A stretch of 64,000 bases of DNA. Origin: Desulfatiglandales bacterium (lineage in GTDB: Bacteria; Desulfobacterota; DSM-4660; Desulfatiglandales; Desulfatiglandaceae). Where the stretch lies: assembly GCA_963662465.1 (NCBI GenBank), contig OY759599.1, positions 32,001 through 96,000 on the forward strand. The letters run 5' to 3'. The position numbers were made by a program, and so were the translations under genes. The notes beneath the pieces were generated by a model, which was not told the DNA's origin, did not search any database, and was given only the letters and a program-made list of their open reading frames with translations. Positions 15,226 to 63,972 of this stretch are shown one piece after another (position 1 is the stretch's first letter; the number at the start of each line of letters is the position of its first letter).

Positions 15226-15320
15226 ACTTCAACCCAAAACCCAAAACTCAAAACCCAAAACCGCTGTTCCAATGCCCGAAACTCAAAACCCAAAACTGCT
15301 GTTCCAATGCCCAAAACCGC
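15226..15320 (+). repeat. C-rich heptamer tract (AAAACCC/AAAACTC) with CTGCTGTTCC
   Basis: Reverse complement of part of the 105-bp array unit at 54-57 kb. Confidence 0.85.
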
Positions 15321-15460
15321 CTTCTTGTAATCCAAAGAGCGGGGAGCTATGTGCGAAGTACCTTAAGAACCATGATCTTACTGCCCTCTGCCCCCTGACA
15401 ACTGCACCCTTTAACAACGACAATAAGGAAAGCCTTACACGAATTGGAGGAGAAGGAACT

Positions 15461-15847
15461 ATGCCGACGGCCCTGGAATTGCTCCCAAAAGGTTGGCGTT
15501 ATTACATTGAGGCTGCGTCCCGCCGGCCCGCCCCACCTGAATTGACCCAGGAACAGGAACACCAACGCGAGCAGATTATAGCGCGACTTCAAGAGGTGGC
15601 AGCAATGCTGAAAAGCCGCTTTGGTGTTCGACGAGTTATTTTATTTGGCTCGCTTGCCCGAAAGCTCTCGTTTACTCCTGGTTCAGATGTGGATATAGCC
15701 GTTGAAGGACTGAACACGAAAAAATATTGGCAGGCTTGGAAGTTGGCTGAGGAGATGATCGGAGATCGCCCAGTGGACTTTGTCCAAATTGAGACAGCGA
15801 AAGAGTCTCTCAAGCGAGCGGTTCAACGCTATGGAATAGACCTATGA
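15461..15847 (+). CDS. Minimal nucleotidyltransferase (MNT) antitoxin
   Basis: VILFGSLAR...SDVDIAV...VDFV; start ATG 15461 after an RBS. Confidence 0.88.
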   Translation: MPTALELLPKGWRYYIEAASRRPAPPELTQEQEHQREQIIARLQEVAAMLKSRFGVRRVILFGSLARKLSFTPGSDVDIAVEGLNTKKYWQAWKLAEEMIGDRPVDFVQIETAKESLKRAVQRYGIDL

Positions 15848-16089
15848 ACAGGGGATTGGAAGCGCTTGTTGAGCGAATTCATGGAGAAATCCCTGATTTG
15901 GATCGGCTTGTGCAAAGGGTGTTATCTGCTTGGAACCGCTCCAAAAGCAAATTGAAGGAACAAGACATTTACTTGGAATCTGTTGCTTTAAATCTCCACG
16001 GCTTTTATTCAGGAGTTGAACGTCTATTTGCTGAACTACTGGCTTTCGCAGATTTTCTAGCAGATTTGGCTCAGGCAAGCAAGACGTGA
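15844..16089 (+). pseudogene. HEPN/DUF86-like toxin with an internal deletion
   Basis: VALNLHGFYSGVERLF is joined directly to a C-terminal helix; no RxxxxH motif. Confidence 0.7.
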
Positions 16090-16395
16090 TCATTCTTAGT
16101 GCAATATTCCACAGAAATTCTCAAAAGGACTTCATTCCCCATGCTCTCTGCCATTATACGCACCCCCGGTGGATTGTTCGTATCCTATTCAAATTCCCTG
16201 GTAGATTCAGCAGAAATGATGAAGAAAGGGAAAACTTTCATCCATTAACCTTCAAGCCCTTCATGTCCTTCATGGTAAAACACATTTTTTCAATTCGTCC
16301 ATAGCCCATTTGCCCATAGCCCATTGCCTACCATACCGATGCCGCAGGCTTCATAAACTTACACCTTTAAAAAATCTCAATCCAAGAGGAATCAA

Positions 16396-18057
16396 ATGAA
16401 AAACAATCAACCCAACATCGCCGTCATCGGCTCCGGCTACTGGGGCAAAAACCTCGTTCGCAACTACCACCAGATCGGTGCTCTCAAACTCATCTGCGAT
16501 AAAAACGAAACCGTCCTCTCCAGCTTTCAAGAGCAATACCCCGGCGTGGACACCTGCATGGCCCTAAACGACACCCTCTCCCGAGAAGACATTCAAGGGA
16601 TCGTCATCGCTACACCGGCCGAAACCCACTACATCCTGGCTCGGGAAGCCCTCCTCGCCGGCAAACATGTCTATATCGAAAAACCCCTGGTCCTCAAAGA
16701 GGAAGATGGGCAGGATCTGATTCGACTGGCCAAAGAGAAAAACCTGGTCCTCATGGTGGGCCACCTGCTTCAGTACCATCCCGTCTTTCTCAAACTGAAG
16801 GAGATGGCCGCCTCCGGTGAACTGGGGCGCATCAATTACATCTATTCCCACCGGCTCAATTTAGGCAAAATCCGCCGGGAAGAAAATATCCTCTGGTCCT
16901 TCGCCCCCCACGACATCTCCATGATCCTCTCCCTGGCCGGAGAAGTACCGGATGCGGTCATGGCCACGGGCGGCAATTATCTACACAAAAAAATCGCCGA
17001 TGTCACCACCACCCACCTGGAGTTCCCCTCGGGCCTTCGCGCTCACATCTTTGTCTCCTGGCTGCACCCCTTTAAGGTCCAGCAACTGGTCGTGGTTGGG
17101 GACAAAAAGATGGCGGTATTTGACGACACCCAACCATGGGAAGACAAACTGCTCCTCTATCCCCACGAAATCAAGTGGCAGAACAACATCCCCATCCCCT
17201 CCAAAGCAGAAGCGCAAAGGGTCGATATTCCTCAGGCCGAACCACTCAAAATGGAATGCGAACATTTTCTCCATTGCATGACAAATTGCCGGAGACCCCA
17301 GACCGACGGTGCCGAAGGCCTCCGCGTTCTCCGTATCCTGAATGCCGCACAACAATCGCTGGATGGTGACAGTGAGAAGATTGATCTCGCGCAAAGACGC
17401 AAAGACGCAAAGGGGTTAGATCGGGGAAAAGAAGAAGGTAAGAAGGTTAGAGGGTTAGAGGGTAAGGCAGACAAAGAAAAAACATATTTTTCCCACGAAA
17501 CGGCCCTTATTGACGATAATGTAACAGTCGGGGATGGAAGCAAAATCTGGCATTTCAGTCACGTACTTTCCAACTCGACCATCGGTGAAAACTGCAACAT
17601 CGGGCAGAACGTGGTGATCGGTCCGGACGTCACCATCGGCAAAGGATGCAAAATCCAGAACAACGTTTCCGTCTACAAAGGGGTCACCCTGGAAGACGGT
17701 GTTTTCTGTGGACCTTCCATGGTCTTCACCAATATCTACAATCCCCGGGCCGAAATCCGGAAGATGGACCAGGTACGTCCCACCTTGGTCAAACATGGCG
17801 CAACCCTGGGCGCCAACTGCACAATCGTCTGTGGAACCACCATAGGGGAATACGGCTTTGTGGGCGCCGGCGCCGTGGTCACCCGAAATGTCCCTAGGCA
17901 TGCCCTAATGTTGGGCAATCCAGCCAGAAGGGTCGGATGGATGTGCCAATGCGGAGAACGCCTGACCGACGACCTGGACTGCCTCACGTGCGGAAAGACC
18001 TATGAAAAGAATGAAGAAGGCCTAAAAGAAAAAATTAGACAGGATTTACAGGATTAA
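16396..18057 (+). CDS. Fused Gfo/Idh/MocA oxidoreductase + hexapeptide N-acetyltransferase (WbpB-WbpD/WlbA-WlbB-like)
   Basis: [18 protein letters not shown]-terminal [24 protein letters not shown]. Confidence 0.9.
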
Positions 18058-18107
18058 CAAGATAAAATAATAAAAAAATCCTGCAAAATCCTGTAAATCC
18101 TGTCTAA
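18035..18107. repeat. Empty inverted pair of ACAGGATT / AATCCTGT 9-mer arms
   Basis: TTAGACAGGATTTACAGGATT ... AATCCTGTAAATCCTGTCTAA, a perfect 21-bp inverted repeat. Confidence 0.9.
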
Positions 18108-18123
18108 AAAAAGAGAGGAAAAA

Positions 18124-19212: not shown

Positions 19213-19261
19213 TGGTCATTAACTCAAAACCCATAACCCAACACTCAAAACTGATTTTCCA

Positions 19262-19332
19262 CCCATGCATCCATAACTCAGCGGTGAAGACCAAAAGCGA
19301 ATCGCGGTCAGTATTGGAGATGGGCGATGTAA
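19262..19332 (+). pseudogene. Diverged duplicate of the aminotransferase 3' end
   Basis: PMHP*LSGEDQKRIAVSIGDG versus PMHPYLSLEDQKRIASAIEDG. Confidence 0.75.
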
Positions 19333-19389
19333 CTGTTTAACTGGGGTTGGCAAAGTCTCCCATTATACAAGATTTGACAACGATTCTTA

Positions 19390-20727: not shown

Positions 20728-20741
20728 ACAGATAGATATAA

Positions 20742-20852
20742 GAGTTGGCAACTCAAAACCCAACACTCAAAACCCAACACCATCTTTGCTCTCTCCGTTA
20801 CCTTCTGTAAAAAGCCCTTAAAAAAAAATCCTGTAAAATCCTGTAAATCCTG
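20742..20852 (+). repeat. Composite repeat (heptamer arm + CTTTGCTCTC...CTTCTGT + AATCCTGT arm), copy 1
   Basis: Near-identical direct copy at 22696-22815 and a partial copy at ~23995-24056. Confidence 0.85.
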
Positions 20853-20913
20853 CCTGCCCCGTGAAACCCGTTTTTTTGTTTCTCTGGGGTCAAAAAAAAC
20901 CGGAGAACCCTTG

Positions 20914-22679
20914 ATGCAACAAAAACAACCCAATGCAACCATTAACAACGCCTCCTCTCCTCTCGACGTGTCCACCTCCCCCAGCGGAGAGGAGTTCCCT
21001 TTGCCGCGGCCCGAGGACTATAACCAGGAATTCAAGAGACTCAAGAAACTGGTGAATGAACAACGGCTCAAGGGTCGGGAAATAGTCGTTGTCATGGGTG
21101 TGGGGTTTGTAGGCGCTGTTATGGCGGGTGTGGTTGCCGACTCGGTGAATCGGGAAACGGGGGAATCCAGGTATTTCGTCATCGGTATGCAGCGGCCTTC
21201 TCCCCGATCTTTCTGGAAAATCCCGTACCTAAACAGGGGGATTGCTCCTGTGGAGGCTGAAGATCCGGATGTGGCGCCCTTGATTCAACGGTGTGTACAG
21301 GACAAGCAGACCCTCACAGCCACCTTTACCTACGATGCCCTGTCACTTGCGGATGTGGTGGTAGTGGATGTTCAGTGCGATTACCACAAGGAGAGCCTGG
21401 GGAATGTTCGTCAGGGACATGCCGACATAGAGGCACTGGAAGAGAGCCTCAAGATTATCGGAGAGAAAATAGAGCCGCACTGCCTGGTCCTGATCGAAAC
21501 GACCGTTCCTCCCGGCACCACGGAGTATGTGGCATACCCCATCATAAAAAGGGCCTTTGAAGCGCGCGGGCTTTTTCAGAAACCGACCTCTGACGTCTGT
21601 CCTCCGTCCTCTGACGTCTGTCCTCTGACTTCTGACTTCCGTCCTCCGACCTCAGTCCTCCGAAAAACGGCGGAGCCGCTTTTAGCCCATTCATTTGAGC
21701 GGGTAATGCCGGGGCGGGAATACGTGGCCTCCATTCGCGACTTCTGGCGCGTGTGCTCCGGCATCAACGATGAAGCCAGAGAGCGGGTGGTGGTGTTTCT
21801 GTCCAACATACTCAATGTAGATAAGTTCCCCCTGACCGTGCTGGACCGGCCGATTGAAAGCGAGACCTGCAAGATCGTAGAGAACTCCTACAGAGCCACC
21901 ATTCTGGCATTCATGGACGAATGGAGTCGGTTTTCCGAGAAAAACGGGGTTGACCTCATCAAGGTCGTGAAGGCCATCAAGGTGCGACCCACGCACGCCA
22001 ACATGATTTTCCCCGGCCCCGGCATTGGGGGATACTGCCTTCCGAAAGACGGAGGTCTTGGCGTCTGGGCCTATCATACGCTTATGGGGTTTGAAGATGA
22101 CATCTTCAAAATCACCCCGATGGCCATCGACATCAACGATACCCGTGCCCTGCATGTGGCCCAGTTGGTGCGTGATGCGCTGCGGAATATGGGACGGATA
22201 GTGGCCGCCTCCAAAATTGCGGTATTGGGCGCTTCCTACCGGGAAGATGTGGGTGACACGCGTTACAGCGGTTCAGAGATGGTCGTCCGGAAACTCACGG
22301 AGATGGGCGCGGATGTGGTGGTTCATGATCCGTATGTCAGCCACTGGTGGGAGCTGGAAAAGCAGGATACCTATCCCTCTCCCGGCCCCGGTTTTTCAGG
22401 AACCAGGACAAACTGAAGGAAATCTCAGTTCAGGATGACCTGAATAAGACCCTGTCCGGAGCTGATGCCGTTATTTTGGCGGTGCGACACCGGGCCTATC
22501 TTGGTTTGGACCCGGATGGGGTGGTGGAAATGATCGGTGGTCCGGCGGCTGTGGTGGACTGCTTCGGGGTGTTGGATGATGCGGCCATCAAGCGGTATTT
22601 CGAGTTGGGCTGCGAGGTCAAGGGACTTGGGCGGGGGCATATTAAGCGGATTAAGGATGCGGTCAGAGCTTCTGCGTAG
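20914..22679 (+). pseudogene. UDP-glucose/GDP-mannose dehydrogenase family gene, frameshifted near 22390
   Basis: GVGFVG, ETTVPPGTT, KIVENSYR, GPGIGGYCLPKD; the C-terminus (RFFRNQ...GLGRGH) is in another frame. Confidence 0.85.
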
Positions 22680-22695: not shown

Positions 22696-22815
22696 GAGTT
22701 GGCAACTCAAAACCCAAAACTCAAAACTCAAAACCCAAAACCATCTTTGCTCTCTTCGTTACCTTCTGTAAAAAGCCCTTAAAAAAAATCCTGTAAAATC
22801 CTGTTAATCCTGTCA
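22696..22815 (+). repeat. Composite repeat, copy 2
   Basis: Direct repeat of 20742-20852 with one extra heptamer. Confidence 0.85.
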
Positions 22816-22852
22816 AAAAAAGAGTTATGGAATTATGAACAATGTCCCCCAT

Positions 22853-23968: not shown

Positions 23969-24062
23969 ATCATTAGGCTTTTACAGCTTAGTTTTCTTCC
24001 TTAACTTCTGTAAAAAGCCCGAAGCAAACATCCTGATAATCCTGTAAATCCTGTCAAAAAAA

Positions 24063-24484
24063 ATGGAGCCGGTTTTCCGAGAAAAACGGGGTTAACCTCA
24101 TCAAAGTCGTTCAGGCCATCAAGGTGCGGCCCACGCACTCCAACATGATTTTCCCCGGCCCCGGCATCGGCGGATACTGCCTTCCGAAAGATGGAGGTCT
24201 TGGCGTCTGGGCTTACCATACGCTTATGGGGTTTGAGGATGACATTTTCAAGATGACCCCTTTAGCCATCGATATTAACGACACGCGTGCCTTGCATGTG
24301 GTCCAGTTGGTGCGGGATGCTCTGCGGAATATGGGACGGATCGTGGGGGCATCCCGGATTGCGGTTTTGGGCGCCTCCTACCGGGAAGACGTGGGCGATA
24401 CGCGTTACAGCGGTTCTGAGATGGTCGTCCGAAAACTCACTGAAATGGGCGCTGAAGTGGTGGTCCACGATCCGTATGTCAGCC
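24063..24484 (+). pseudogene. Diverged 422-bp duplicate of an internal dehydrogenase segment (21921-22342)
   Basis: Colinear alignment; mostly synonymous differences. Confidence 0.9.
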
Positions 24485-47720: not shown

Positions 47721-48848
47721 ATGGTTAAAAAAATCGGAATTACCGGTCAGAGCGGTTTTATCGGCACCCATCTGTACAACACTCTGGGTCTGGAGCCAGA
47801 AAAATTTCAGCGTGTACCTTTTGACCGTTCTATCTTTGAGGATAGCGCCCGGCTTGAACAGTTTGTCTCCCAGTGCGATGTGATAGTTCACCTTGCAGCC
47901 TTGAATCGACACAACGACCCCCGGACCATCTACGACACTAACCTGGACCTGGTAAAACACCTGATTCAGGCTATGGAATCAACCCATTCCAAACCCCATT
48001 TGCTCTTTGCCTCATCCATCCAGGAGGAAAAGGAAAACCCCTATGGTCGTTCCAAAAAAGAAGGCCGAATGCTGCTTGAGCAATGGGCAGTCCAAAATCG
48101 GGCCTGTTTCACAGGCCTGATCATGCCCAACGTGTTTGGTCCATTCGGCCACCCCTATTATAACTCAGTGGTGGCCACCTTCTGCCATCAACTGACCCAT
48201 AACGAACAGCCTGAAATCGACATAGATGGAGAGCTAAAACTCATTTACGTGGCCGAGCTGGTACAAACCATTATTACCCATATCAACAATCCACAATCCA
48301 CAATCACCAATCACCAAATCCCACACACATCCACCATCAAAGTTTCCCGTTTATTGGATAAGCTCACAACTTACAAGCAGGCGTATTTTGACAGGCAGAT
48401 CATCCCGGAGATCCGAGACCCCTTTGACCGGAACCTGTTTAACACCTTTGTCTGCTATATTGATCATAAGTCATTTTATCCGGGGAAGCTTGTGCCGCAC
48501 ACGGATCAGCGGGGCAGTTTTGTGGAGGTGCTAAAACTCGACAACACCGGTGGGCAGGTGTCTTTTTCCACTACAGTTCCGGGTATTACCCGGGGCAACC
48601 ATTTCCATATCCGCAAGTTTGAACGATTTGCTGTGATCAAGGGCAGAGCCAGAATTGATTTGCGCAGGGTCGCCACAGAGGAGGTTCTGTCCTTTGAAAT
48701 GAACGGGGAAAAGCCTTCGTTTGTTGACATGCCCATCTGGTTTACGCACAATATAACCAATATCGGAGATGATGAGGTATATACCTTATTCTGGATCAGT
48801 GAATTTTATGATCCAGATAATGGGGATACGTATTTTGAAAAGGTGTAA
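47721..48848 (+). CDS. fnlB: FnlB/WbjC/Cap5F reductase-cupin
   Basis: ITGQSGFIG, PYYNSVVATFC, D.RGSF.E, RGNHFH. Confidence 0.88.
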   Translation: MVKKIGITGQSGFIGTHLYNTLGLEPEKFQRVPFDRSIFEDSARLEQFVSQCDVIVHLAALNRHNDPRTIYDTNLDLVKHLIQAMESTHSKPHLLFASSIQEEKENPYGRSKKEGRMLLEQWAVQNRACFTGLIMPNVFGPFGHPYYNSVVATFCHQLTHNEQPEIDIDGELKLIYVAELVQTIITHINNPQSTITNHQIPHTSTIKVSRLLDKLTTYKQAYFDRQIIPEIRDPFDRNLFNTFVCYIDHKSFYPGKLVPHTDQRGSFVEVLKLDNTGGQVSFSTTVPGITRGNHFHIRKFERFAVIKGRARIDLRRVATEEVLSFEMNGEKPSFVDMPIWFTHNITNIGDDEVYTLFWISEFYDPDNGDTYFEKV

Positions 48849-52929: not shown

Positions 52930-52930
52930 A

Positions 52931-53806
52931 ATGCTGGATTTTACGATCAAAGCATCCGAACATTTATTGAAAGCCCTGAAAGATCAGGGCTATTGTTTTT
53001 TAATTTTTCGGGAATTTGTTCAGGCTTCAGAAGAGAAAATGATCACTTTGAGGCACGATGTTGATCGCAAACCAAAGAATTCACTTGAAATTGCTCGGCT
53101 TGAAAAAAGTGTCGGCATAAGAGCCAGTTATTATTTCCGGGCTGTGCCTGAGAGCTATGATGAAGATATTATCAGAGAAGTAGAGGAAATGGGACATGAG
53201 ATCGGATATCATTATGAAACCATGGACACTTGTAGAGGCGATATTGCCAAAGCCTATGACGAGTTTTGTCGCAACCTGGAGAAATTTCGAAAAGTAGCCT
53301 CAATTGATACGATCTGCATGCATGGCAGTCCACTCTCAAAATGGGATAATCGTGATGTTTGGAAGAAATATGATTACAAAAAATTGGGCATCAAAGCTGA
53401 ACCTTTCCTTGATTTGGATTTTGATGAAGTGTTTTATCTGACGGATACGGGCAGGCGGTGGGACGGGGATCGGGTTTCGGTGAGGGATAAGGTTGGTGGG
53501 CAGAGGACAGAGGACGGAGGACTGAGGACAGAGGTCAGACGACAGATGACGGAAAACAGATCCCAGGTCTCAGGAATTGGGCATAAAGAACAGCCATTTC
53601 AGAATCTTCGGTTCCATTCCACATTTGATATTATAGAGGCGGCGGAAAAGGGGTTGTTGCCGGATAAAATGATGATTAATACACATCCGCAAAGGTGGAC
53701 TGATAACCCGGTGGCGTGGACGAAAGAGTTGGTTTGGCAGAATGTGAAGAATGTTGTGAAACGTATTGTTGTTCGTAGATTACGATCCGCAGATTACGCA
53801 GATTGA
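52931..53806 (+). CDS. Polysaccharide deacetylase-like protein with an in-frame heptamer insertion
   Basis: LRHDVD, GHEIGYHYE, CMHGSP, YLTDTGRRWDG, HPQRW. Confidence 0.8.
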   Translation: MLDFTIKASEHLLKALKDQGYCFLIFREFVQASEEKMITLRHDVDRKPKNSLEIARLEKSVGIRASYYFRAVPESYDEDIIREVEEMGHEIGYHYETMDTCRGDIAKAYDEFCRNLEKFRKVASIDTICMHGSPLSKWDNRDVWKKYDYKKLGIKAEPFLDLDFDEVFYLTDTGRRWDGDRVSVRDKVGGQRTEDGGLRTEVRRQMTENRSQVSGIGHKEQPFQNLRFHSTFDIIEAAEKGLLPDKMMINTHPQRWTDNPVAWTKELVWQNVKNVVKRIVVRRLRSADYAD

Positions 53807-53879
53807 CGCAGATTGGGGTTCTCGCGCAAAGACGCAGAGGCGCAAGGGCTAGAAGATCAGAAGGTCAGGGGTTTCTGGG

Positions 53880-54278: not shown

Positions 54279-54288
54279 ATACAGTGAT

Positions 54289-56975
54289 GAGTTTTGGGTT
54301 TTGGGTTTTGAGTTAAAGGAAACGTCCTGATTATGGTTGATAGGAAGATCTTTAAAGGCAGTTTTGGGTTATGGGTTAGGGAACAGCAGTTTTGGGTTTT
54401 GGGTTTTGAGTTTTGAGTTAAAGGAAACGTCCTGATTATGGGTGATAGGAAGATCTTTAAAGGCAGTTTTGAGTTTTGGGTTAGGGAACAGCAGTTTTGG
54501 GTTTTGAGTTTTGGGTTTTGAGTTAAAGGAAACGTCCTGATTATGGGTGATAGGAAGATCTTTAAAGACAGTTTTGGGTTATGGGTTAGGGAACAGCAGT
54601 TTTGGGTTTTGGGTTTTGGGTTTTGAGTTAAAGGAAACGTCCTGATTATGGGTGATAGGAAGATCTTTAAAGGCAGTTTTGAGTTTTGGGTTAGGGAACA
54701 GCAGTTTTGGGTTTTGAGTTTTGGGTTTTGAGTTAAAGGAAACGTCCTGATTATGGGTGATAGGAAGATCTTTAAAGACAGTTTTGGGTTACGGGTTAGG
54801 GAACTGCAGTTTTGAGTTTTGAGTTTTGGGTTTTGAGTTAAAGGAAACGTCCTGATTATGGGTTATGGGAAGATCTTTAAAGGCAGTTTTGGGTTTTGGG
54901 TTAGGGAACAGCAGTTTTGGGTTTTGAGTTTTGAGTTTTGAGTTAAAGGAAACGTCCTGATTATGGGTGATAGGAAGATCTTTAAAGACAGTTTTGGGTT
55001 ATGGGTTAGGGAACTGCAGTTTTGAGTTTTGAGTTTTGGGTTTTGAGTTAAAGGAAACGTCCTGATTATGGGTTATGGGAAGATCTTTAAAGGCAGTTTT
55101 GGGTTTTGGGTTAGGGAACAGCAGTTTTGAGTTTTGGGTTTTGGGTTTTGAGTTAAAGGAAACGTCCTGATTATGGGTTATGGGAAGATCTTTAAAGGCA
55201 GTTTTGGGTTTTGGGTTAGGGAACAGCAGTTTTGGGTTTTGAGTTTTGAGTTTTGAGTTAAAGGAAACGTCCTGATTATGGGTGATAGGAAGATCTTTAA
55301 AGACAGTTTTGGGTTATGGGTTAGGGAACTGCAGTTTTGAGTTTTGAGTTTTGGGTTTTGAGTTAAAGGAAACGTCCTGATTATGGGTGATGGGAAGATC
55401 TTTAAAGACAGTTTTGGGTTATGGGTTAGGGAACAGCAGTTTTGGGTTTTGAGTTTTGGGTTTTGAGTTAAAGGAAACGTCCTGATTATGGTTGATAGGA
55501 AGATCTTTAAAGACAGTTTTGGGTTATGGGTTAGGGAACTGCAGTTTTGGGTTTTGAGTGTTGGGTTTTGAGTTAAAGGAAACGTCCTGATTATGGGTGA
55601 TGGGAAGATCTTTAAAGACAGTTTTGGGTTATGGGTTAGGGAACAGCAGTTTTGGGTTTTGAGTTTTGAGTTTTGAGTTAAAGGAAACGTCCTGATTATG
55701 GTTGATAGGAAGATCTTTAAAGGCAGTTTTGGGTTTTGGGTTAGGGAACAGCAGTTTTGAGTTTTGGGTTTTGAGTTAAAGGAAACGTCCTGATTATGGG
55801 TGATAGGAAGATCTTTAAAGACAGTTTTGGGTTATGGGTTAGGGAACAGCAGTTTTGGGTTTTGAGTTTTGAGTTTTGAGTTAAAGGAAACGTCCTGATT
55901 ATGGGTGATGGGAAGATCTTTAAAGACAGTTTTGGGTTATGGGTTAGGGAACAGCAGTTTTGGGTTTTGAGTTTTGGGTTTTGAGTTAAAGGAAACGTCC
56001 TGATTATGGGTGATAGGGAGATCTTTAAAGGCAGTTTTGGGTTATGGGTTAGGGAACAGCAGTTTTGGGTTTTGAGTTTTGGGTTATGAGTTAAAGGAAA
56101 CGTCCTGATTATGGGTGATGGGAAGATCTTTAAAGACAGTTTTGGGTTATGGGTTAGGGAACAGCAGTTTTGGGTTTTGAGTTTTGAGTTTTGAGTTAAA
56201 GGAAACGTCCTGATTATGGGCGATGGGAAGATCTTTAAAGACAGTTTTGGGTTATGGGTTAGGGAACAGCAGTTTTGGGTTTTGAGTTTTGGGTTTTGAG
56301 TTAAAGGAAACGTCCTGATTATGGGTGATGGGAAGATCTTTAAAGACAGTTTTGGGTTATGGGTTAGGGAACTGCAGTTTTGGGTTTTGGGTTTTGGGTT
56401 TTGAGTTAAAGGAAACGTCCTGATTATGGGTGATGGGAAGATCTTTAAAGACAGTTTTGGGTTATGGGTTAGGGAACAGCAGTTTTGGGTTTTGAGTTTT
56501 GAGTTTTGAGTTAAAGGAAACGTCCTGATTATGGGTGATGGGAAGATCTTTAAAGACAGTTTTGGGTTATGGGTTAGGGAACAGCAGTTTTGGGTTTTGA
56601 GTTTTGAGTTAAAGGAAACGTCCTGATTATGGTTGATAGGAAGATCTTTAAAGACAGTTTTGGGTTTTGGGTTAGGGAACTGCAGTTTTGGGTTTTGAGT
56701 TTTGAGTTTTGAGTTAAAGGAAACGTCCTGATTATGGGTGATGGGAAGATCTTTAAAGACAGTTTTGGGTTATGGGTTAGGGAACAGCAGTTTTGGGTTT
56801 TGAGTTTTGGGTTTTGAGTTAAAGGAAACGTCCTGATTATGGGTGATGGGAAGATCTTTAAAGACAGTTTTGGGTTATGGGTTAGGGAACTGCAGTTTTG
56901 GGTTTTGGGTTTTGGGTTTTGAGTTAAAGGAAACGTCCTGATTATGGGTGATGGGAAGATCTTTAAAGACAGTTT
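54289..56975 (+). repeat. Tandem array of 26 units of 105 bp (two units 98 bp), G/T-rich and non-coding
   Basis: AAGGAAACGTCC recurs at 54316, 54421 ... 56927; each unit equals 15 heptads. Confidence 0.97.
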
Positions 56976-58994
56976 CCCCCTGTGTCAGGATAGATGTCGC
57001 CTCAATTGAAAAATCAAAACCGGGGGCATTGAGGTGATTTTATGGTATACCCGATTAAAATGAAAGAGGCAGTGATAAAAAAAGTGCAGATGGGTGGAAA
57101 ACCTCATTATGAAATAGCAAGTGAAGCCGGCATCGCTCAGTCCACCTTGACTTACTGGCTCAAAAACCACAAAAAAGACGGGAACAAGAATTTGACTGAA
57201 AAAGAAAAACGCCCCCAAGACTGGACTGTAGAGCAACGACTGAATGCTTTAATGGAAACAGGTGCCATGCCGGAAGGGGAACGTGCTTCCTGGTGCCGTA
57301 AAAGAGGGGTCTTTTCTCACCACCTTGAACAGTGGAAAAAAGACATCCTCTCCTTGTCAACCCCAAACAACTCCGCCCTTAAATTCAAAGGGACTGCCCG
57401 GTTAAAGAAGGAGAATGCCGCTCTGAAAAAAGAGTTGAACCGTAAGGATAAAGCACTTGCCGAGACGGCAGCCTTGCTGGTTCTTAAAAAAAAGCGGACT
57501 TTATCTGGGGGGATCCCAGGGACGATTGATCAGTGAAGGCGACAAAAAGGAAGCCTTGGCTCTGATCCAGGAGGCATGCAAGGCCGGGGCACGTAAGCAT
57601 CTTGCAGCAGAGCTTCTGGGGCTGCCGCTTCGGACGGTACAACGCTGGGAAACGCATGGCATTAATGATCACCGTAAAGGCTCCCGGGCTGTGCCCGGCA
57701 ACAAGATATCCCAAAAAGAGAGGGAAAAAATCATGGATGTGCTGACATCATTGGAATTTGGGGATTTTAACCCCCATCAAATTGTTCCCAAACTTGCGGA
57801 TCAAGGTATCTACCTGGGGTCGGAAGCCACCATGTACAGGATTTTGAGAAAGCAGAAAATGAACAAACACCGCCTCTCAAGCCAGGCAGGGGCCCGAAAA
57901 CGCCCGGAGGCGTACATTGCCACAGGCCCCAATCAGGTATGGTCCTGGGATATAACATATTTGCCGGCCCGGGTAAAAGGTCGTTTTTTCTACCTTTATA
58001 TGATTATGGATGTCTACAGCCGTAAAGCAGTGGGATACCAGGTCTATGATTGTGAATCCGGAGAACTTGCAGCAGCTCTGATTACAGACACCTGTAATCA
58101 GGAAAAAATACAAGAGGATCAGTTAGTTCTGCACTCTGATAACGGCGGGCCAATGAAAGCCTTTACCATGCTTGCAAAACTGGAATCCCTGGGGGTAGTG
58201 CCGTCATTCAGCCGCCCCAGGATCAGCAATGACAACCCCTATTCTGAGTCGTTGTTCCGAACCATGAAATATCGTCCGGAATACCCTGAGCATCCCTTTG
58301 AAGACCTGAAGAATGCTCGGGAGTGGACAGAAAAATTCTCCCAATGGTATAACAATGAACACCTTCATAGCGGTATTTGCTTTGTAACTCCTACAGACCG
58401 ACATGAGCGAAAAGATATTGAAATCCTTGAAAAACGTCATCATTTCTACCAAGAGGCAAAGAGTTGTCATCCGGAACGCTGGACTGGGGCAACAAGAAAC
58501 TGGGAGCACATTGGTGAAGTGGCGTTAAACAGGAGGAACAAACCAGGAAAAAACGACCGAAGACGGGAAAAAGGCGGCACTACCCCAGCGCCCGTACCTG
58601 TGTTATTAATTTCGTTATCCTGACGGTTTTTACCGAATTGAGGTGACCGGAAAGGGAGGTTTAATGAGCCTTATCGCATGCCTAAACTCATTGTGGTTAT
58701 TTGCTAAACTATTGATATTGTATCAAATAGTTTCTCTTTTTTCCCAAACTGCCCTATAGGTTTACAGATTAACAGGTGACAATTGATGGTTACCTCAATC
58801 CGCAAAATTCCGTCAGAATATCGTGGCGATGAACACCTGCAAACCAACAGAGTTGATTTTGCCTATGGAGGAGCAAAAAATTCTCATGGCCGAGAATGGG
58901 CCTCTAAAAAAGCTCGTCGGAGGCCATGAGAATTTTTTACGGGTATCGCGATAATTTTTACAAGTTTAGGTGACAACTTGCTTGACATCTACCG
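56976..58994 (+). mobile_element. IS3-family element
   Basis: Subterminal IRs TGTCAGGATAGATGTCGCCT / AGGTGACAACTTGCTTGACA; GTTT duplication at 56972-56975 and 58995-58998. Confidence 0.88.
57042..58623 (+). CDS. IS3-family transposase OrfA/OrfB with a -1 programmed frameshift
   Basis: OrfA ends LLVLKKK at an A8G run (~57485); OrfB has WSWDITYL, LHSDNG, NDNPYSESLF. Confidence 0.92.
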
Positions 58995-59018
58995 GTTTTG
59001 GGTTATGGGTTTTGAGTT

Positions 59019-59414
59019 TTGGGTGAAAACCAGAAGAAAATTGACGAAAGGACTTTTGATTTTGCTTTGTTGGTGGTTGATGCTTACAGGTTTTTGCTGC
59101 ACAAAAAAGAGTTTGTCTTATCCAAGCAATTTTTGAGAGCAGGCACTTCAATAGGTGCCAATGTCACAGAGGCACAGGCGGCTCAGAGTAGAAATGACTT
59201 TATTTCAAAGATGTCCATTGCTTCAAAAGAGGCAAGGGAGACGGATTATTGGGTTCGGCTTCTCAGGAAATCCGGGTATTTTAAAGGGTATGAAAAATTG
59301 GGTATTTTGGAGAAAGATATTTCAAGTATCATGAGGATCTTGACGAGTATCGTAAAAACCACTCGGGAAAATCACCCAAAACCCAACACTCAAAACCCAA
59401 AACCGCTAAAATGA
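59019..59414 (+). CDS. Four-helix-bundle protein (23S-IVP/bAvd-like family)
   Basis: KQFLRAGTSIGANVTEA..AQS..DFISK.SIA.KEA.ET.YW. Confidence 0.92.
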   Translation: MGENQKKIDERTFDFALLVVDAYRFLLHKKEFVLSKQFLRAGTSIGANVTEAQAAQSRNDFISKMSIASKEARETDYWVRLLRKSGYFKGYEKLGILEKDISSIMRILTSIVKTTRENHPKPNTQNPKPLK

Positions 59415-59507
59415 GGTGTTGTATTCATTTAAGCTGGCTCCCAAATCCAAAACGCGGGCCATACCCTCTATGGTGCCGGGATTTGCAAACAAAAAATACT
59501 TTTGCAT
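59406..59507 (-). pseudogene. Small protein, apparently truncated at the cassette arm
   Basis: AGGAG RBS; MQKYFLFANPGTIEGMARVLDLGASLNEYNTSF*. Confidence 0.45.
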
Positions 59508-59861
59508 AGAAAATCTCCTTTAATGGCACCAGTATAACAACGCAATTTCTCAGAAATCAAGCAGAAATCTACGATTACCAAAAAAAACAGCAGAGGATCA
59601 AAAAAAGTTCTTCAGAAGGAAAATCGGGGTCTGGCTTTCCTTGTTATCGTTTTGGGTGAAAAGGAGATCGATGAATAGGCTTTTGATTTTTCCTTTTTCT
59701 CACCACAAGACACAGAGTTCACTGAGAAAAAATGGAGAGGCGCTTTGATCGCTTCGTCTCTTAGCCTGTTTGCTGCCGATTGCTTGAGGGGGTTGGGAGG
59801 TTGTGGAATGGGGGACGCTGTCCCCGAATTTTGTTTTTCGCGCAAAGACGCAGAGGCGCAG

Positions 59862-59920
59862 GGACCTGGGGGACGTCCATTTGTAATTCAGTAACTCGAT
59901 ATTTTGGCACCCCGGTTAAA
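59862..59920 (+). repeat. ~58-bp dispersed repeat GGACCTGGGGGACGTCCATTTGTAATTCAGTAACTCGATATTTTGGCACCCC
   Basis: Further copies at ~61969, ~63163 (partial) and ~63204. Confidence 0.9.
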
Positions 59921-60022
59921 CCCCAGTGGGGGAAGCGCCCTTAACTTTTTAACTTTAGTTTGGGTTCTCGCGCGGAGGCGCTGAGACGCAAAGAAGAGAG
60001 GAAAAAAAGGTGAGAGGGTTAG

Positions 60023-60245
60023 CAGAGGTCGGATGTCGGAGGTCGGAGGACTGAGGTCGGAGGTCGGAGGTCGGAGGTCGGAGGTCGGAGGTCGGAGGGC
60101 GGATGTCGGATGTCGGAGGTCGGAGGTCGGAGGTCGGAGGACGGAGGACGGAGATCGGAGGACGGAGATCGGGAAAAGACAGAGGTCGGATGTCAGAGGT
60201 CGGAGGTCGGATGTCGGAGGTCGGAGGACGGAAGGCGGAGGACTG
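60023..60245 (+). repeat. G-rich heptamer tract (GAGGTCG/GAGGACG/GATGTCG)
   Basis: About 30 heptads; related tracts at 53500, 61663, 63390 and 63610; inverted form at 21583. Confidence 0.92.
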
Positions 60246-60481
60246 ATCGCAGGTCTCAGGAATTGGGCATAAAAACAGCCATTTCAGAATCTTCGGTTTC
60301 ATTCCACGTTTGATATTGTTGAGAAATAGGGGACGCTGGCAACTTTGTAAACTTATTCAGGGCGGTGGTCCACATACCGAAGGAATAGGCTACACTGAAG
60401 CACAAAAGGGTTTTTTGCTTGACGGCGGGGTGTTGGTACTTGGTCGTTGCCATTTGATAAGATTTTGGTTATTATCGGATT

Positions 60482-61481
60482 ATGAGTAATGAAATCGGAT
60501 CAGCGCACAATAATCTGTTCCAGAACATCCTTGGCCGTGAAGATATGGCCAGGGATTTTGTCCGGTATTATATGCCGGCGGAAATCGTCGGCGATCTGGA
60601 CCTGGATACTTTGGAAGTGGCCTCTGAATCGTATATCAGTGATGATCTCAAAGAGAGCCTTTCCGATATCGTACTCAGCCTCCAGCTCAAGGATGGGGAC
60701 CCGGCTGAAATATACATTCTTATGGAACACAAAAGCGGGTTGCACAGAGGCACGCGGCTGCAACTTTTGAATTATATGAACGCCAAATGGCATGAGCTGG
60801 ACAAGGCCGGAGAGTTTCGGGGATCACTGGCTGTTATCATTCCCGTGGTTTTCTACCATGGCAAGAAAAAATGGAGATACAGCCTGGAATTCTCGGACCA
60901 GTTCAATCTGCCTGGAGAGCATTATAGGAGATATGTCCCCAAATTCGAACATATTTTGCATGAAGTTCCGGAGATCAATAAGCGCAAGATCAAATCCACC
61001 ATCGCTCTTGAACATTCATGTGGTGCTGGAGTGTATTTTCTACCCGGAGAAACGGGAGCGAATTTATGAATCCCTTGAGTTGTTGTTTCAGGGGTTAAAC
61101 ACGGATAAGGCCGGCGAGCTGTTTTATGTGTTTGTCAAATACCTGCTTTCCGCCACCGATGTAAACCCCAGAGAGGTGGAAAAGAGGGTAAAACATCTTC
61201 CAAAAGGAGAAGAGACCGTGCGTACTACAGCAGAAGTTTTGAGGAAAGAAGGCTATGACAGTGGAGTGGTTTTCGGCGAACAACATGGCAAGCTTGAAAC
61301 CGCTCAGGAAATGCTCATAGACGTCGCCGGTGAACGATATGGACTTTTGCCTTCCGTACTGGAAGCGAAAATCAAATCCATTAAGTCCATCACGACTTTG
61401 AAAAATTTGGCAAGACAAGTCGTTAAGCTGGACAGGATGGAGGGTTTTGAAAGGCTCGTCAACAAGGCTGTGGATCATTGA
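60482..61481 (+). pseudogene. Rpn/YhgA-like recombination-promoting nuclease, frameshifted near 61010
   Basis: H..LF...L, L...LSDI, YIL.EHKS, IPVVFYHG..W; the C-terminus is in another frame. Confidence 0.85.
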
Positions 61482-62329
61482 TGCCAACTGAACCTCCAAA
61501 CCCCACCCAAAACATAGTACCCCTTCCTTTCCCTTTACCTATTTTAGCCCAAAGCCATTTTGGGCAAGCTGTTCCAATTATCTACTCACCTTGGCCTTGA
61601 GCTTACTCGTAATGGAATAGGACGTTGTTCCGTAATTCCGTTTTTTGCCCACGAATCACACTGAGGACAGAGGACGGAGGACGGAGGTCGGAGGGCGGCG
61701 TGGACGTAGGGAACGTAGTCAACTTGTAAACTTACTGATTGAGAAAAACCATTTTCAGGTGATGGGTGATTGTGTTGCGTGAAAACCCGCGTCTCCCGCG
61801 TGGCCCCTGCTTAGGGACGAGACAAGCAGGCTGGGGCTTGGGTACAGGACGAAAATCCTTTACACAAAATCGATTAATTGTTTATGACCCAGACCTCGTT
61901 ATTTGATCTAACAAGCACCGTTTTTTGGACACCATCCTCGTCATATCAGCTGTATGGAGGCAAATTGTGGACCTGGGGGACGTCCATTTGTAATTCAGTA
62001 ACTCGATATTTTGGCACCCCGGTTAAATGCGTTCCACTCGTCACTGGCGTGAATTTAACGGGGCAGGCGCATTTCACAGATGGCACAGATTAATTGTTTC
62101 GCGCCCAGTGAAACAACTGCAACGAAGGTTTCACAAGGCAGGCAGAGGCGCAAAGATAGAAGCTGAAAACTCAAAGGGGAAAGGACAGGGGGCAAAACTG
62201 CGGGATGGATGGATAAGTAGGGTTTTCACAGTAAGGCGGCAAAGCCGCAGTTTTGGGTTTTGGGTTTTCAGTCATTAAACTTCTTGTTTTTTGGGAAAGA
62301 AGACCAGGTACTATAGCAGCGATTATGGC

Positions 62330-62357
62330 TTGACTTTACACCATAAAGGTGTAAAAT
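62330..62357 (+). promoter_or_regulatory. mqsRA promoter with an overlapping palindromic operator
   Basis: TTGACT...TAAAAT overlapping TTTACACC-N5-GGTGTAAA. Confidence 0.65.
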
Positions 62358-62366
62358 GGATAAAGA

Positions 62367-62684
62367 ATGACAGAAAAACGAAAACCAACATACGATATAG
62401 AAGCTTTCAAAACAGCTTTTGCCAATATGGAGAGACTTTCCGCCACGGGCACAGCGCTACGAAGCGCCGCCGCATTGGGATTCGGACGCGCGGAGATCGT
62501 GGCGACGATCCAGTCAATGCAGCGAGGGCACTTTTACAAGTCTATGACCGCTTATGCCAATCATCGACTTTGGCAGGACGTCTACCACGTCCCTTCACCG
62601 GCCGGCGAGTTGTATGTTAAGTTCACCGCCGATACCGTTACAGAGTTTTTGTTGCTATCGTTTAAGGAGAAAGACGATGACTAA
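62367..62684 (+). CDS. mqsR: MqsR toxin
   Basis: EKRKPTY, FYKSMT....H..WQDVY, LLSFKEK. Confidence 0.92.
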   Translation: MTEKRKPTYDIEAFKTAFANMERLSATGTALRSAAALGFGRAEIVATIQSMQRGHFYKSMTAYANHRLWQDVYHVPSPAGELYVKFTADTVTEFLLLSFKEKDDD

Positions 62685-63144
62685 TCCCATTTGTCCGGAA
62701 ACGGGTGCTCCGATGCACCGCGGCGTGCAACCGATAACCATCAGGTACAAGAGCGAGACGATCACTTTCGATATGCCGGGGTGGTACTGCGACCAGTCTG
62801 ATGAGAGCATTCATACCGGCAAGGACATGAAGGTATCCGACCGAATGTTAAATCGCCTTAAAGCCCTTAGCGAAGGGCTGCTTGAACCGGAGGAAATTCG
62901 TCGTATCCGCAAGAAGATTGATCTTACGCAGGAAGTCGCGGGGCGGGTAATCGGTGGTGGCCCGCGTGCCTTCCAAAAATACGAAAGCGGAGACCTGTTG
63001 CCGAGTCGGGCCATCAGTAGCGCCTTGACTTTGCTTGATCATTACCCCGAGGCGTTGGCCGTGCTTAAAGCAGGGCGCGGTATTGAAGAGCCCCTGCCTT
63101 ACAAAACGACGGACCACGGCCATAACCAGAGCGCCGCTTTTTGA
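62677..63144 (+). CDS. mqsA: MqsA antitoxin
   Basis: IRRIRKK..LTQ..A....GGG..AF.KYE.G; degenerate zinc ribbon (CPETG...CDQS). Confidence 0.9.
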   Translation: MTNPICPETGAPMHRGVQPITIRYKSETITFDMPGWYCDQSDESIHTGKDMKVSDRMLNRLKALSEGLLEPEEIRRIRKKIDLTQEVAGRVIGGGPRAFQKYESGDLLPSRAISSALTLLDHYPEALAVLKAGRGIEEPLPYKTTDHGHNQSAAF

Positions 63145-63389
63145 TACCATCATGAAATGCGTGGGACCTGGGGGACATCCATTTGTAATTCAGTAACTCA
63201 ATGAGGACCTGGGGGACGTCCATTTGTAATTCAGTAACTCGATATTTTGGCACCCCAGTTAAATAATAGCAAAAACAGATTTAACCCCGCTACCATCTTC
63301 CAGCACTGCGGGACAGGCGGGGCAGGCGCATTTCACAGATGGCACCCCGGTTGAACACCCTGGAAGGGAACCCGGTTCAACTGGGCAGG

Positions 63390-63750
63390 GAGGACAGAAG
63401 GCAGAGGTCAGACGACAGAGGACAGGGGACGGAGGACAGAGGACAGAGGACAGGGGACAGAGGACGGAGGGCGGATGTCGGAGGACGGAGATCAGAGGAC
63501 AGATGGCGGAAGACAGATCCCAGGTCTCAGGAATTGGGCATAAAGAACAGCCATTTCAGAATCTTCGGTTCCATTCCACATTCGATATTATTGAGGCGGC
63601 GGAGAATCCCAGAGGTCAGAAGTCGGAGGTCGGTGGTCGGATGTCGGATGTCGGAGGTCGGAGGTCAAGAGGAAAAGAAGGTGAGAGGGTGAGAAGTTAA
63701 GAAGGTGAGAGGGTTAGCAGAGGACAGAGGACGGGGGACGGAAGGCGGAG
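63390..63750 (+). repeat. Heptamer/octamer G-rich tracts surrounding a copy of a deacetylase-gene segment
   Basis: GAGGACA/GAGGTCG and GAAGGTGA-type units; ~63499-63606 matches ~53542-53649. Confidence 0.85.
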
Positions 63751-63972
63751 GGCAGGGATAAAAGAAAAGGATCCCAGGGGTCAGGCTTTCCTTATTGTTG
63801 GTTGTGGGGGGATGTTGAGAGGGTCGCGCTGAGATCCACAGGTTACGCAGATGACACGGATTGGTAAGTATCTGGAAACGCCGCGCCCAGGTTGAATGAA
63901 TAAAAAGGTCTTGACTGCCACCGATTGAATGCATAGACTAAGTTCATTGAACTCAATTTTATGAGGTGACCC

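Follow-up and report, generated by a model that had tools for sequence, protein, structure and literature searches.

Putative hairpin cassettes with tandem-word arms in a Desulfatiglandales genome

The locus and its repeat arrays

The window analysed here, a stretch of 64,000 nucleotides, lies in a duplicated polysaccharide locus rich in mobile elements within an 8.16-Mb Desulfatiglandales genome (Table 1). With positions 54291-56975 set aside, it holds 27 exact two-copy heptamer repeats, whereas 100 first-order Markov simulations averaged 4.1 and never exceeded 8; the same simulations gave 0.97 for period 8 (5 observed) and 0.08 for period 10 (4 observed). An initial annotation of this DNA had described families of short words arranged as inverted arms, and these were recovered by TRF: GGGTTTT/AAAACCC at 15231, 20751, 22704, 34569, 58994, 59374, and 62250; GAGGTCG at 60025-60241 and 63612; CCGACCTC at 21583; AAATCCTGT at 18034, 18075, 20825, 22785, and 24030; CGCAGATTGA at 53788; CGCAAAGA at 17390 and 53824; and AAGAAGGT at 17432 and 63676. 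The array of AAATCCGTG (7227) falls outside the range that the annotation had given. All four states in which it had seen the arms (filled pairs, empty pairs, solo arms, and in-frame arrays) are present in the window.

Table 1. Repeat arms, arrays, and associated genes in the window
Feature	Coordinates	Strand	Evidence
Solo AAAACCC-type arm, 2.2 units of 35 bp	15231..15317	+	TRF; 42-nt copy-number difference from paralogue
In-frame 8-mer arrays (CGCAAAGA, AAGAAGGT)	17390..17466	+	TRF, Pfam
Gene-less hairpin, ACAGGATT / AATCCTGT arms, between two operon genes	18035..18107	+	Inverted-repeat search, fold
Composite solo arms (AAAACCC then AAAATCCTGT), upstream of dehydrogenase gene	20751..20852	+	TRF
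In-frame heptamer array (CCGACCTC / TGTCCTC) in UDP-glucose/GDP-mannose dehydrogenase-family gene	21583..21663	+	TRF, Pfam
Composite solo arms (AAAACCC then AAAATCCTGT), 3' side of dehydrogenase gene, before BRO-N gene	22704..22817	+	TRF
Solo ATCCTGTAA arm, 3' of BRO-N gene	24030..24054	+	TRF
ATCAACA array, 5 copies, within ORF 47721-48848	48282..48317	+	TRF
GxxExxY cassette remnant, N-terminal ~45 codons	48852..49120	+	Read by motif
CAGAGGA array within ORF 52901-53806	53501..53550	+	TRF
Solo CGCAGATTGA + GCGCAAAG arms, before truncated DUF6765 gene (53880-54278)	53788..53849	+	TRF
105-bp tandem array, 25.7 copies, 94% matches	54291..56975	+	TRF
Single-copy IS3-family insertion, 4-bp GTTT duplication	56976..58994	+	Profile and homology search
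5' arm of 4HB cassette, GGGTTTT-type heptamers	58990..59026	+	TRF, inverted-repeat search
4HB gene, PF05635 / TIGR02436, 131-aa ORF	59019..59414	+	Profile matches
3' arm of 4HB cassette, AAAACCC-type	59372..59408	+	TRF; RNA fold pairs both ends
GAGGTCG array, 30.6 copies	60025..60241	+	TRF
Frameshifted Rpn/YhgA-type (PF04754) gene	60482..61481	+	Profile match
Run of GAGGACA, GAGGTCG, AGAAGGTG, and CAGAGGA arrays	63390..63732	+	TRF

The four-helix-bundle (4HB) gene (PF05635, E 1.3e-22; TIGR02436, E 4.1e-28; PDB 2rld, E 2.1e-29) overlaps with both ends of its ORF the arms of its cassette, which are 37 nt long and 86% complementary. The previously reported match of 27 positions out of 31 between these arms was reproduced for 58994-59024 and 59374-59404. 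In the predicted RNA fold the cassette has 31 terminal pairs, and cassette-end pairing in such folds reached z-scores of -5.2, -18.1, and -3.8. The GxxExxY remnant, whose translation ends in GHLEKIYENGLAHRLRKQ followed by a stop, is flanked by imperfect inverted arms (approximately 48854-48882 and 49090-49118) and has 27 terminal pairs in its predicted fold. A search with the PF13366 profile gave no match at the remnant, and its assignment to the GxxExxY family thus rests on the motif and the layout. The empty pair is a hairpin with fully complementary arms of 21 nt (18035-18055 and 18087-18107) around a 31-nt loop, and its 5' arm includes the stop codon of the gene before it. Two arrays in direct orientation, GAGGTCG and GAGGACG (the latter at 61663-61698), enclose the Rpn/YhgA-type gene.

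The largest feature of the window, the 105-bp array, was left out of the initial annotation. It is derived from the upstream arm of the 4HB cassette. Within each unit are two heptamer arms, both G-rich, and a stretch of 45 nt that recurs upstream of other GGGTTTT-type 4HB genes, and a paralogous array (8147984-8149128) continues directly into a 4HB gene. Here, the IS3-family element (orfA, 57042-57536; orfB, 57457-58623) separates the array from the cassette. The array has stops in all frames and contains no canonical G4 motif with loops of up to 7 nt. We ruled out a CRISPR array because whole 105-bp units are 94% alike and there are no unique spacers alternating with them.

Cargo families and their arm words

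In this genome, the resident 4HB genes have inverted heptamer arms with three different words, and the resident GxxExxY genes have 8-10-mer arms with five words. The same layout is found in related genomes. Arms with a score of at least 14 surround 22 of the 30 4HB loci of relatives and none of 49 shifted controls, with periods of 7 (15 loci), 8 (6), and 12 (1). For GxxExxY, 18 out of 25 usable loci are armed (0/45 controls), with periods of 9 (9 loci), 10 (4), 8 (3), 11 (1), and 7 (1). Each gene family goes with one arm type (period 7/8 at 4HB loci, 8-10 at GxxExxY loci), a pairing that had been proposed as a check of the cassette idea. The words also follow the clades of the proteins: mapped on the protein tree they require 19 changes (minimum possible 16, mean of shuffled labels 27.0), a value as low being obtained in 0 of 200 shuffles, with word labels set by eye and related genomes that are non-independent samples. 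Nine pairs of loci share just the cassette of approximately 400-500 nt, and their flanks are unrelated.

These observations lead us to favour, with somewhat better than even confidence, an explanation in which the genome has been colonised by hairpin cassettes resembling rRNA intervening sequences (IVS), each with an arm word specific to a protein clade. A complete unit is a small gene, encoding either a PF05635 4HB protein or a PF13366 GxxExxY nuclease of the PD-(D/E)XK type, within two inverted arms, and in each arm one clade-specific short word (period 7-8 for 4HB, 8-10 for GxxExxY) is repeated in tandem about 3-5 times. Gene-less hairpins, solo arms, and in-frame arrays are the decay products of such units, which can also be amplified in tandem, as in the 105-bp array. 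By analogy with the IVS of Coxiella, base pairing between the arms may form a stem in the operon transcript that RNase III would cut, so that an insert is tolerated between genes. Excision from RNA is inferred solely from the Coxiella 23S IVS, which carries PF05635. The arm mismatches of 25 cassettes gave no sign of selected pairing in the sense RNA (31 G-U versus 24 A-C, p 0.42, with 61 transversion mismatches). At the DNA level, movement by arm-directed recombination or gene conversion is the likeliest route, possibly helped by an encoded protein recognising its own word array.

A bolder reading, which we advance tentatively, is that these are a new class of selfish elements, in which the cargo protein, with each subunit reading about one word, recognises its own array and directs copying of the cassette to hairpins and gene junctions. 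A ring of four-helix bundles or a GxxExxY nuclease would serve as cargo, and arms of some four to five heptamers would suit a five-subunit 4HB ring. The S23p of Xanthomonas is described as a homopentamer (PMC4990558), and the two PDB relatives have five chains each. If true, this reading would account for 23S intervening sequences and for the excess of heptamer repeats long observed in bacteria.

Derived forms, insertions, and other explanations

Some gene-less hairpins are internally deleted derivatives of gene-bearing cassettes, as judged from the sequences of their loops. Genome-wide, 63 inverted pairs have a gap of less than 150 nt, and some of the loops are conserved. Those at 844580 and 3106334 match a resident 4HB cassette (94% over 84 nt and 91% over 45 nt), and for the loop at 6523879 the match (90% over 40 nt) is to a same-word cassette in a relative. 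The dispersal of these pairs, with some loops conserved, could also be taken to mean that the gene-less hairpins resemble MITEs or REPINs and are mobilised in trans by a conventional enzyme from another locus, for example a Y1 transposase of the IS200/RAYT type or a nuclease of the Rpn/YhgA type. Both genes occur in the window (Y1 at 9225-9734), along with the IS transposases, which makes the previous statement that no dedicated recombinase is evident too strong, and the genome has 11 PF04754 matches. Against this, the Y1 gene (PF01797) belongs to an ordinary multicopy IS200-type element without flanking arms, ten plus-strand Rpn genes examined among the 11 matches have no consistent arm layout, and an insertion in an rRNA spacer (below) lacks a clear target-site duplication. 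We regard mobilisation in trans as highly improbable.

The arms mark out discrete units, which some sites carry and otherwise matching sites lack. A 63-nt hairpin is found in two of the three 23S-5S rRNA spacers; the hairpin-less site has no seed array, and the insertion shows no clear target-site duplication. At the junction orthologous to the empty pair, a congeneric genome carries an additional 2.1 kb of genes bounded by arms. They comprise a module of three genes, the last of them SecB-like, then a GxxExxY gene and a fragment of ORF6N type, and AATCCTGT arms bound each of these three parts. The in-frame insertions inside enzymes that had been reported are confirmed at two places. The heptamer array of the dehydrogenase gene (93 nt) is missing from two paralogues, one of them 95% identical, and differs by a 21-nt indel from a paralogue; the 8-mer arrays encode an interdomain linker between a GFO/IDH/MocA oxidoreductase and the hexapeptide acyltransferase fused to it, with 18-nt and 9-nt indels relative to a paralogue. 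Present and absent states are seen at the rRNA spacers, in enzyme paralogues, and at the congeneric junction, as the cassette idea would have it.

The arms are part of a population of arrays that spans the genome. It includes 182 exact heptamer arrays of at least 3 copies, whereas the counts for periods 5, 6, and 8-11 are 0-14, and it amounts to 898 TRF rows of period 7. The distribution of copy number is flat over 2-5.5 and then falls (180, 184, 210, 204, then 47). Such arrays could be host-serving repeats of the STRR or TAACTGA type, that is, translation or transcript-stability signals and hairpin stabilisers of mRNA grown by slippage, with the small genes merely lying in recombination-prone DNA. 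Published work on Beggiatoaceae, cyanobacteria, and Xanthomonas describes heptamers both as direct repeats near start codons and as inverted pairs (PMC4679880, PMC4692102). Like STRR and TAACTGA repeats, the period-7 arrays lie chiefly between genes or near their ends (482 intergenic and 84 at an ORF boundary, 566 of the 876 merged arrays, with crude ORFs covering 86% of the genome); arrays that follow stops are of the T/G-rich form, and those that precede starts are A/C-rich. Coding arrays compared with paralogues preserve the reading frame, and paralogues differ by copy-number indels of 7, 18, 21, and 42 nt, showing that plain slippage operates too. The commonest words, AAAACTT (115 arrays) and AACAGCT (76), have no resident cargo gene, so that a cognate protein cannot be their present maintainer. 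Slippage does not account, however, for whole 63-nt hairpins at a seedless site, for loops that are deleted cassettes, for homology limited to cassettes in unrelated contexts, for the link between words and protein clades, or for arms at 40 of the 55 cargo loci of both families pooled against 0 of 94 shifted controls. As a full explanation, host-serving repeats seem unlikely.

The hairpins might instead be passive portable homology, with ordinary recombination or gene conversion between dispersed arms shuffling modules among paralogous glycan loci and no dedicated mobility or RNA function. Ends of homology blocks fall within 30 nt of arrays in 21 out of 60 cases (6.3 expected, maximum 16 in 2000 trials), although BLAST alignments also break at copy-variable arrays in collinear DNA. 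One block, shared with 7119857-7120190, begins at the CAGAGGA array at 53501-53550; the blocks 53501-53835 and 60337-61696 are adjacent and in reversed order at 7118535-7120190, joined in a GAGGACR array. In two congeners with syntenic flanks, one cassette stands in opposite orientations, and the tandem arrays of 105 and 203 bp would suit unequal crossing-over. Yet the arms, at 20-37 nt, offer RecA-type recombination only short homology, as is well established, and passive homology accounts neither for the same cassette and word in different families of the order nor for the insertion into an rRNA spacer. We give it little credence as the whole account. Compared with the cassette reading of the initial annotation, insertable arm-delimited units stand, and a special relation to glycan loci does not: the system is genome-wide, with no special tie to them. 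The arms may play a causal part in rearranging these loci.

Known systems and significance

The preferred reading, colonisation by IVS-like cassettes, finds its closest parallel in the IVS of 23S rRNA in Coxiella burnetii and Leptospira, where a PF05635 ORF (S23p) lies in the loop of a terminal-inverted-repeat stem. In Coxiella, the IVS is described as having a 28-bp terminal stem and tandem GACAGAT heptamers before the start codon of S23p, with RNase III cleaving at the first repeat (PMC4990558). The 4HB cassette likewise has a PF05635 ORF in the loop and a heptamer terminal stem. In contrast to the 23S IVS, the units here lie between or inside protein-coding genes, include a second cargo family, GxxExxY, and have many gene-less copies; none of the 11 PF05635 matches of the genome is inside the three 23S genes (6654817-6669038), and the window has no Rfam match.

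REPIN-RAYT systems also have a gene between inverted repeats, scattered gene-less hairpin copies, and a repeat of its own for each gene lineage. They differ in that the cargo here is PF05635 or PF13366 and not a Y1 transposase, and in that the arms are arrays of 7-10-nt words and not REP palindromes, the commonest words lacking a resident gene. Integron attC cassettes share with these units co-oriented genes parted by imperfect hairpins, extra cassettes at a junction of one genome that another lacks, and tandem amplification, whereas the arms here are word arrays; integrons have IntI and attI beside the array, and a Pfam scan of 60 ORFs of the window yielded no integrase family. STRR, TAACTGA (Beggiatoaceae), and GGGAATC (Xanthomonas) repeats are tandem heptamers near gene starts and ends, in part arranged as convergent inverted pairs and with words shared across distant lineages (PMC4679880, PMC4692102); in the available text of these sources they are treated as regulatory or G-quadruplex elements and tied to no gene family, while here they are the arms of gene cassettes. 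Finally, MITEs resemble the hairpins in being short, non-coding, multicopy, and bounded by terminal inverted repeats, some being internal deletions of a gene-bearing unit. Here, the parent has a 4HB or PD-(D/E)XK protein as cargo instead of a known transposase, and the rRNA-spacer insertion lacks a clear target-site duplication.

We found no description in the literature of these cassettes outside rRNA. The preferred reading would unite PF05635 and PF13366, two large and uncharacterised families, with puzzling bacterial repeats, and make the rRNA IVS a special case. This genome shows side by side complete and deleted cassettes, hairpins, solo arms, protein-linker arrays, and a 2.7-kb tandem blow-up, and its duplicated loci and three rRNA operons serve as internal controls, making binding, cleavage, and mobility directly testable. 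The arms mark entry points of accessory genes into surface-polysaccharide operons, and the cassettes may explain the abundance of such repeats in some bacteria.

Arms and cargo of the cassettes

The genome is a single contig of 8,161,625 bp with 49.5% G+C, of which bases 32001-96000 make up the window. It contains 11 hits of the four-helix-bundle family (4HB, PF05635), and 12 hits of the GxxExxY nuclease family (PF13366) have arms of 8-10-mers in five words; one full GxxExxY gene lies at 8119351-8119686. The arms are inverted tandem arrays of a short word and enclose the gene. GGGTTTT-type arms surround the 4HB gene of the window, its paralogue at 8149157, and the genes or fragments at 7115799, 7120682, 7124325, and 103675. 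The PF05635 hits at 7112917 and 6454072 have GAGGACR arms (113-127 nt) and GTCAGTT arms, respectively; two weak PF05635 hits of this genome have no arms. The 4HB arms of the window and the empty hairpin were found as the initial annotation had described them, and Tandem Repeats Finder (TRF) lists every one of its word families at or near the places it gave. The GxxExxY remnant that it proposed also has its motif and inverted arms (Table), even if it is too short for Pfam.

We searched 81 genomes of the order, where PF05635 occurs in 65 and PF13366 in 42, and scored arms at the best hit per genome as the best ungapped inverted match between flanks, with a threshold of 14. Scores of at least 14 were obtained at 22 of the 30 4HB loci and at none of the 49 controls made by a 1-kb shift (top score 12), which were drawn from 27 loci because the other three left no room. 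The same was true of 18 out of 25 GxxExxY loci and of none of 45 controls (maximum 11.5), once five of the 30 loci were left out for contig ends or N. The best periods at 4HB loci were 7 (15 loci), 8 (6), and 12 (1), and those at GxxExxY loci were 9 (9 loci), 10 (4), 8 (3), 11 (1), and 7 (1). Each of the two gene families thus goes with an arm type of its own, mostly of period 7 or 8 for 4HB and 8-10 for GxxExxY, a pairing that the initial annotation had suggested examining.

Arm words also follow the 4HB protein tree, made of 33 proteins (30 from relatives and 3 from this genome). The 17 word groups require 19 changes, the minimum possible being 16, when shuffled groups require 27.0 on average and none of 200 shuffles came down to 19; the groups were assigned by eye and the related genomes are not independent samples. 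In nine pairs of loci the common part is the 400-500-nt cassette only, with unrelated flanks, and one such pair comes from distinct families within the order (87% identity over 422 nt). Two congeners (loci L046 and L052) carry the 4HB cassette in opposite orientation between syntenic flanks that are 85-90% identical. Rpn/YhgA-type genes were rejected as regular cargo, since no consistent inverted arms were found at the 10 plus-strand genes examined among 11 hits.

Occupied, empty, and gene-less sites

From ~14.5 kb onwards, the window is occupied by a plus-strand polysaccharide locus encoding DegT-type aminotransferases, UDP-sugar dehydrogenase, glycosyltransferases, EpsG, epimerases, and WecG. 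It is interrupted by IS elements (DDE_5, IS4, IS3, IS200), toxin-antitoxin pairs (Phd/ParE, PIN, MqsA), and BRO-N, Rpn/YhgA-type, and 4HB genes (one of the latter). Upstream, the ORF with an MCM OB-fold domain and the TrwB/HerA-like ATPase gene (Table) form an odd pairing for a bacterium and are perhaps part of an integrated element. Neither Rfam matches nor tRNAs were found in the window. Most of the window has a paralogue elsewhere in the genome, 99.99% identical over the first 9170 nt and 91-99% in the rest, going down to 91-96%, which provides an internal comparison akin to that of two strains. The two copies differ in IS insertions and repeat copy number: indels within repeat arrays measure 7, 18, 21, and 42 nt, and the flanking DNA has others of 5 to 79 nt. 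Three indels of coding repeat regions (21, 18, and 9 nt) preserve the frame.

Table. Coordinates of features in the window and elsewhere in the genome
Feature	Frame	Coordinates	Strand	Details
TrwB/HerA-like ATPase gene	window	615-2810	-	near the MCM OB-fold ORF
ORF with MCM OB-fold domain	window	7485-8342	-	E 7e-24
Linker of the bifunctional enzyme	window	17390-17466
Empty hairpin	window	18035-18107
UDP-sugar dehydrogenase, split ORF	window	20911-22416 and 22347-22679		10-nt deletion at 22387 relative to the paralogue
Partial duplicate of the UDP-sugar dehydrogenase gene	window	24062-24484
DUF6399 protein	window	42966-44645	-	inserted amid glycosyltransferase genes
DDE_5 transposase fragment	window	44976-45533		likewise amid glycosyltransferase genes
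GxxExxY remnant	window	48852-49120
105-bp tandem array	window	54291-56975		25.7 copies, 94% matches
IS3-family element	window	56976-58994		single copy; 4-bp GTTT duplication; separates the 105-bp array from the 4HB gene
4HB gene	window	59019-59414		arms at 58990-59026 and 59372-59408
Rpn/YhgA-type gene (PF04754)	window	60482-61481		split by a frameshift; lies between two long arrays, GAGGTCG and GAGGACG, in direct orientation
Paralogue of the Rpn/YhgA-type gene	genome	8152139-8153140		intact
CRISPR-like array	genome	1267235-1270813		outside the window; period 73-74 bp, conserved repeat 36-37 nt
203-bp array of gene-less GxxExxY-type hairpin units	genome	1480065-1482604		12.3 copies; adjoins a full GxxExxY gene at 1482609
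TTAGCYR hairpins of the 23S-5S spacer	genome	6657918-6657974 and 6663649-6663705		outside the window; 63 nt
Paralogue of most of the window	genome	8084947-8155659		covers window 1-24484 and 53129-64000

Several sites were found both with and without an insert. The 23S-5S spacer carries a TTAGCYR hairpin in two out of three rRNA operons and is a clean empty site in the third, with no target duplication evident at the hairpin insertion. At one codon position of the UDP-sugar dehydrogenase gene, the array measures 93 nt in the window and 72 nt in the paralogue at 8110991; in two paralogues a longer insert of another kind stands there, and neither the 95%-identical paralogue at 7084685 nor the distant one at 5874555 has any. 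The junction 3' of a bifunctional oxidoreductase-acyltransferase holds only the empty hairpin in the window. In the congener G010 the equivalent hairpin is followed by 2.1 kb and then by the aminotransferase gene. These 2.1 kb contain a module of three genes, the last of which is SecB-like, as well as a GxxExxY gene and an ORF6N fragment; a AATCCTGT arm precedes or follows each of them. In a genome of another genus (G013, locus L055), the orthologous junction is occupied by a GxxExxY gene whose arms differ and most of whose sequence is given as N; genome G005 has no repeat at it. The linker of the bifunctional enzyme, described earlier as an in-frame insertion, does not interrupt a single-domain enzyme: the enzyme is a fusion, its linker is variable, and the ORFs of relatives have 531-553 aa. 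Judging from these sequences, the fused form with a variable linker is ancestral.

The genome has 63 pairs of inverted arrays less than 150 nt apart. We compared 32 hairpin loops with cassettes using BLAST and obtained 7 hits. The loops of three GTCAGTT hairpins retain both ends of this genome's 4HB cassette, which BLAST bears out for two (94% over 84 nt and 91% over 45 nt). Two hairpins of the word TTAGCTG match a cassette with this word in a relative from a different genus (90% over 40 nt and 96% over 23 nt). Among the CATGAAGAA hairpins, some recur at several loci with loops that are nearly identical.

Short-period arrays and tandem amplifications

When the 105-bp array is set aside, exact two-copy heptamer repeats in the window number 27, compared with an expectation of 4.1 and a highest count of 8 over 100 Markov simulations; periods 8 and 10 are likewise in excess. 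The whole genome has 182 exact heptamer arrays of at least three copies, compared with 0-14 for periods 5, 6, and 8-11. In the TRF output, 898 rows have period 7 and fall into 237 word classes, with AAAACTT (115 arrays), AACAGCT (76), AAAACTC (51), and AAAACCC (44) as the top words. Once merged (n=876), 482 arrays are intergenic and 84 lie across an ORF end, in a genome of which crude ORFs make up 86%. Copy numbers stay level between 2 and 5.5 and drop steeply beyond, a shape that would not be expected from simple slippage.

REARRANGEMENT

Of 60 ends of homology blocks, 21 lie no more than 30 nt from an array, when 6.3 are expected, and two window blocks are joined in reverse order at 7.119 Mb, inside a GAGGACR array. 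This fits recombination at the arms. It does not demonstrate that they cause rearrangement, because alignments also break at variable arrays.

The largest feature of the window, the 105-bp array, was missed by the initial annotation and accounts for a local GC skew of 0.59. Each unit comprises a pair of G-rich heptamer arms that point the same way, plus a 45-nt piece also found upstream of other GGGTTTT-type 4HB genes. In the paralogue, the 4HB gene follows immediately on an array of 10.9 copies. Every frame of the window's array contains stops, and this array cuts off a DUF6765 gene at residue 131 of 325. It could have been a G-quadruplex region, but it has no canonical motif with loops of up to 7 nt. 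Tandem promoters were rejected because no promoter-like site lies there (3 sites in region 53800-59600 versus 6.9 expected), and a CRISPR because there are no unique spacers. A conserved RNA was rejected as well: the unit was found in 2 of the 41 genomes searched, its own and one congener with partial matches of 75-76%, a count to be read knowing that draft genomes often leave repeats unassembled. We read the array as a recent tandem amplification of the 5' part of the cassette, rather than as a conserved RNA. There are also a 203-bp array of gene-less units (Table) and smaller arrays of 44-59 bp close to other 4HB genes.

Predicted arm pairing in RNA and relation to known systems

These comparisons establish discrete arm-bounded units, arm-cargo specificity, a decay series, and in-frame tolerance. 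Both gene families, in every decay state, occur in this single genome. As for the mechanism, the two arms would pair in the transcript and RNase III would cut there. Cassette ends are paired in the predicted RNA folds, and the minimum free energy of the window cassette is -129.7, compared with -101.1 ± 5.5 for mononucleotide shuffles. The Coxiella 23S rRNA intervening sequence (IVS) that bears an S23p gene, of the 4HB family, is reported to have a terminal stem of 28 bp with tandem GACAGAT heptamers varying between strains, and to be cleaved by RNase III at the first heptamer repeat (PMC4990558). If selection maintained RNA pairing, G-U mismatches should exceed A-C ones in the arms, but we counted 31 and 24 (p 0.42), and transversion mismatches are commoner still (61), which counts against a constraint at the RNA level. 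The commonest array words have no resident cargo gene in this genome, which is evidence against a model with cognate proteins. The solved relatives 2rld and 2gsc have five chains per entry, and the Xanthomonas S23p protein is reported as a homopentamer (PMC4990558); that five-chain proteins match arms of four to five heptamers is suggestive at most.

REPIN-RAYT, integron cassettes, and MITEs share the layout of these units, but the enzyme that defines each of them is absent here. Heptamer repeats of intergenic regions, inverted pairs included, were already published (PMC4679880, PMC4692102), in passages that tie them to none of these gene families. In the literature outside subscription journals, we found no paper placing PF05635 or PF13366 genes in repeat-built arms beyond rRNA. 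The cassettes do not lie in 23S rRNA, the defining location of the ORF-bearing 23S IVS, but this element is the nearest known thing to them.
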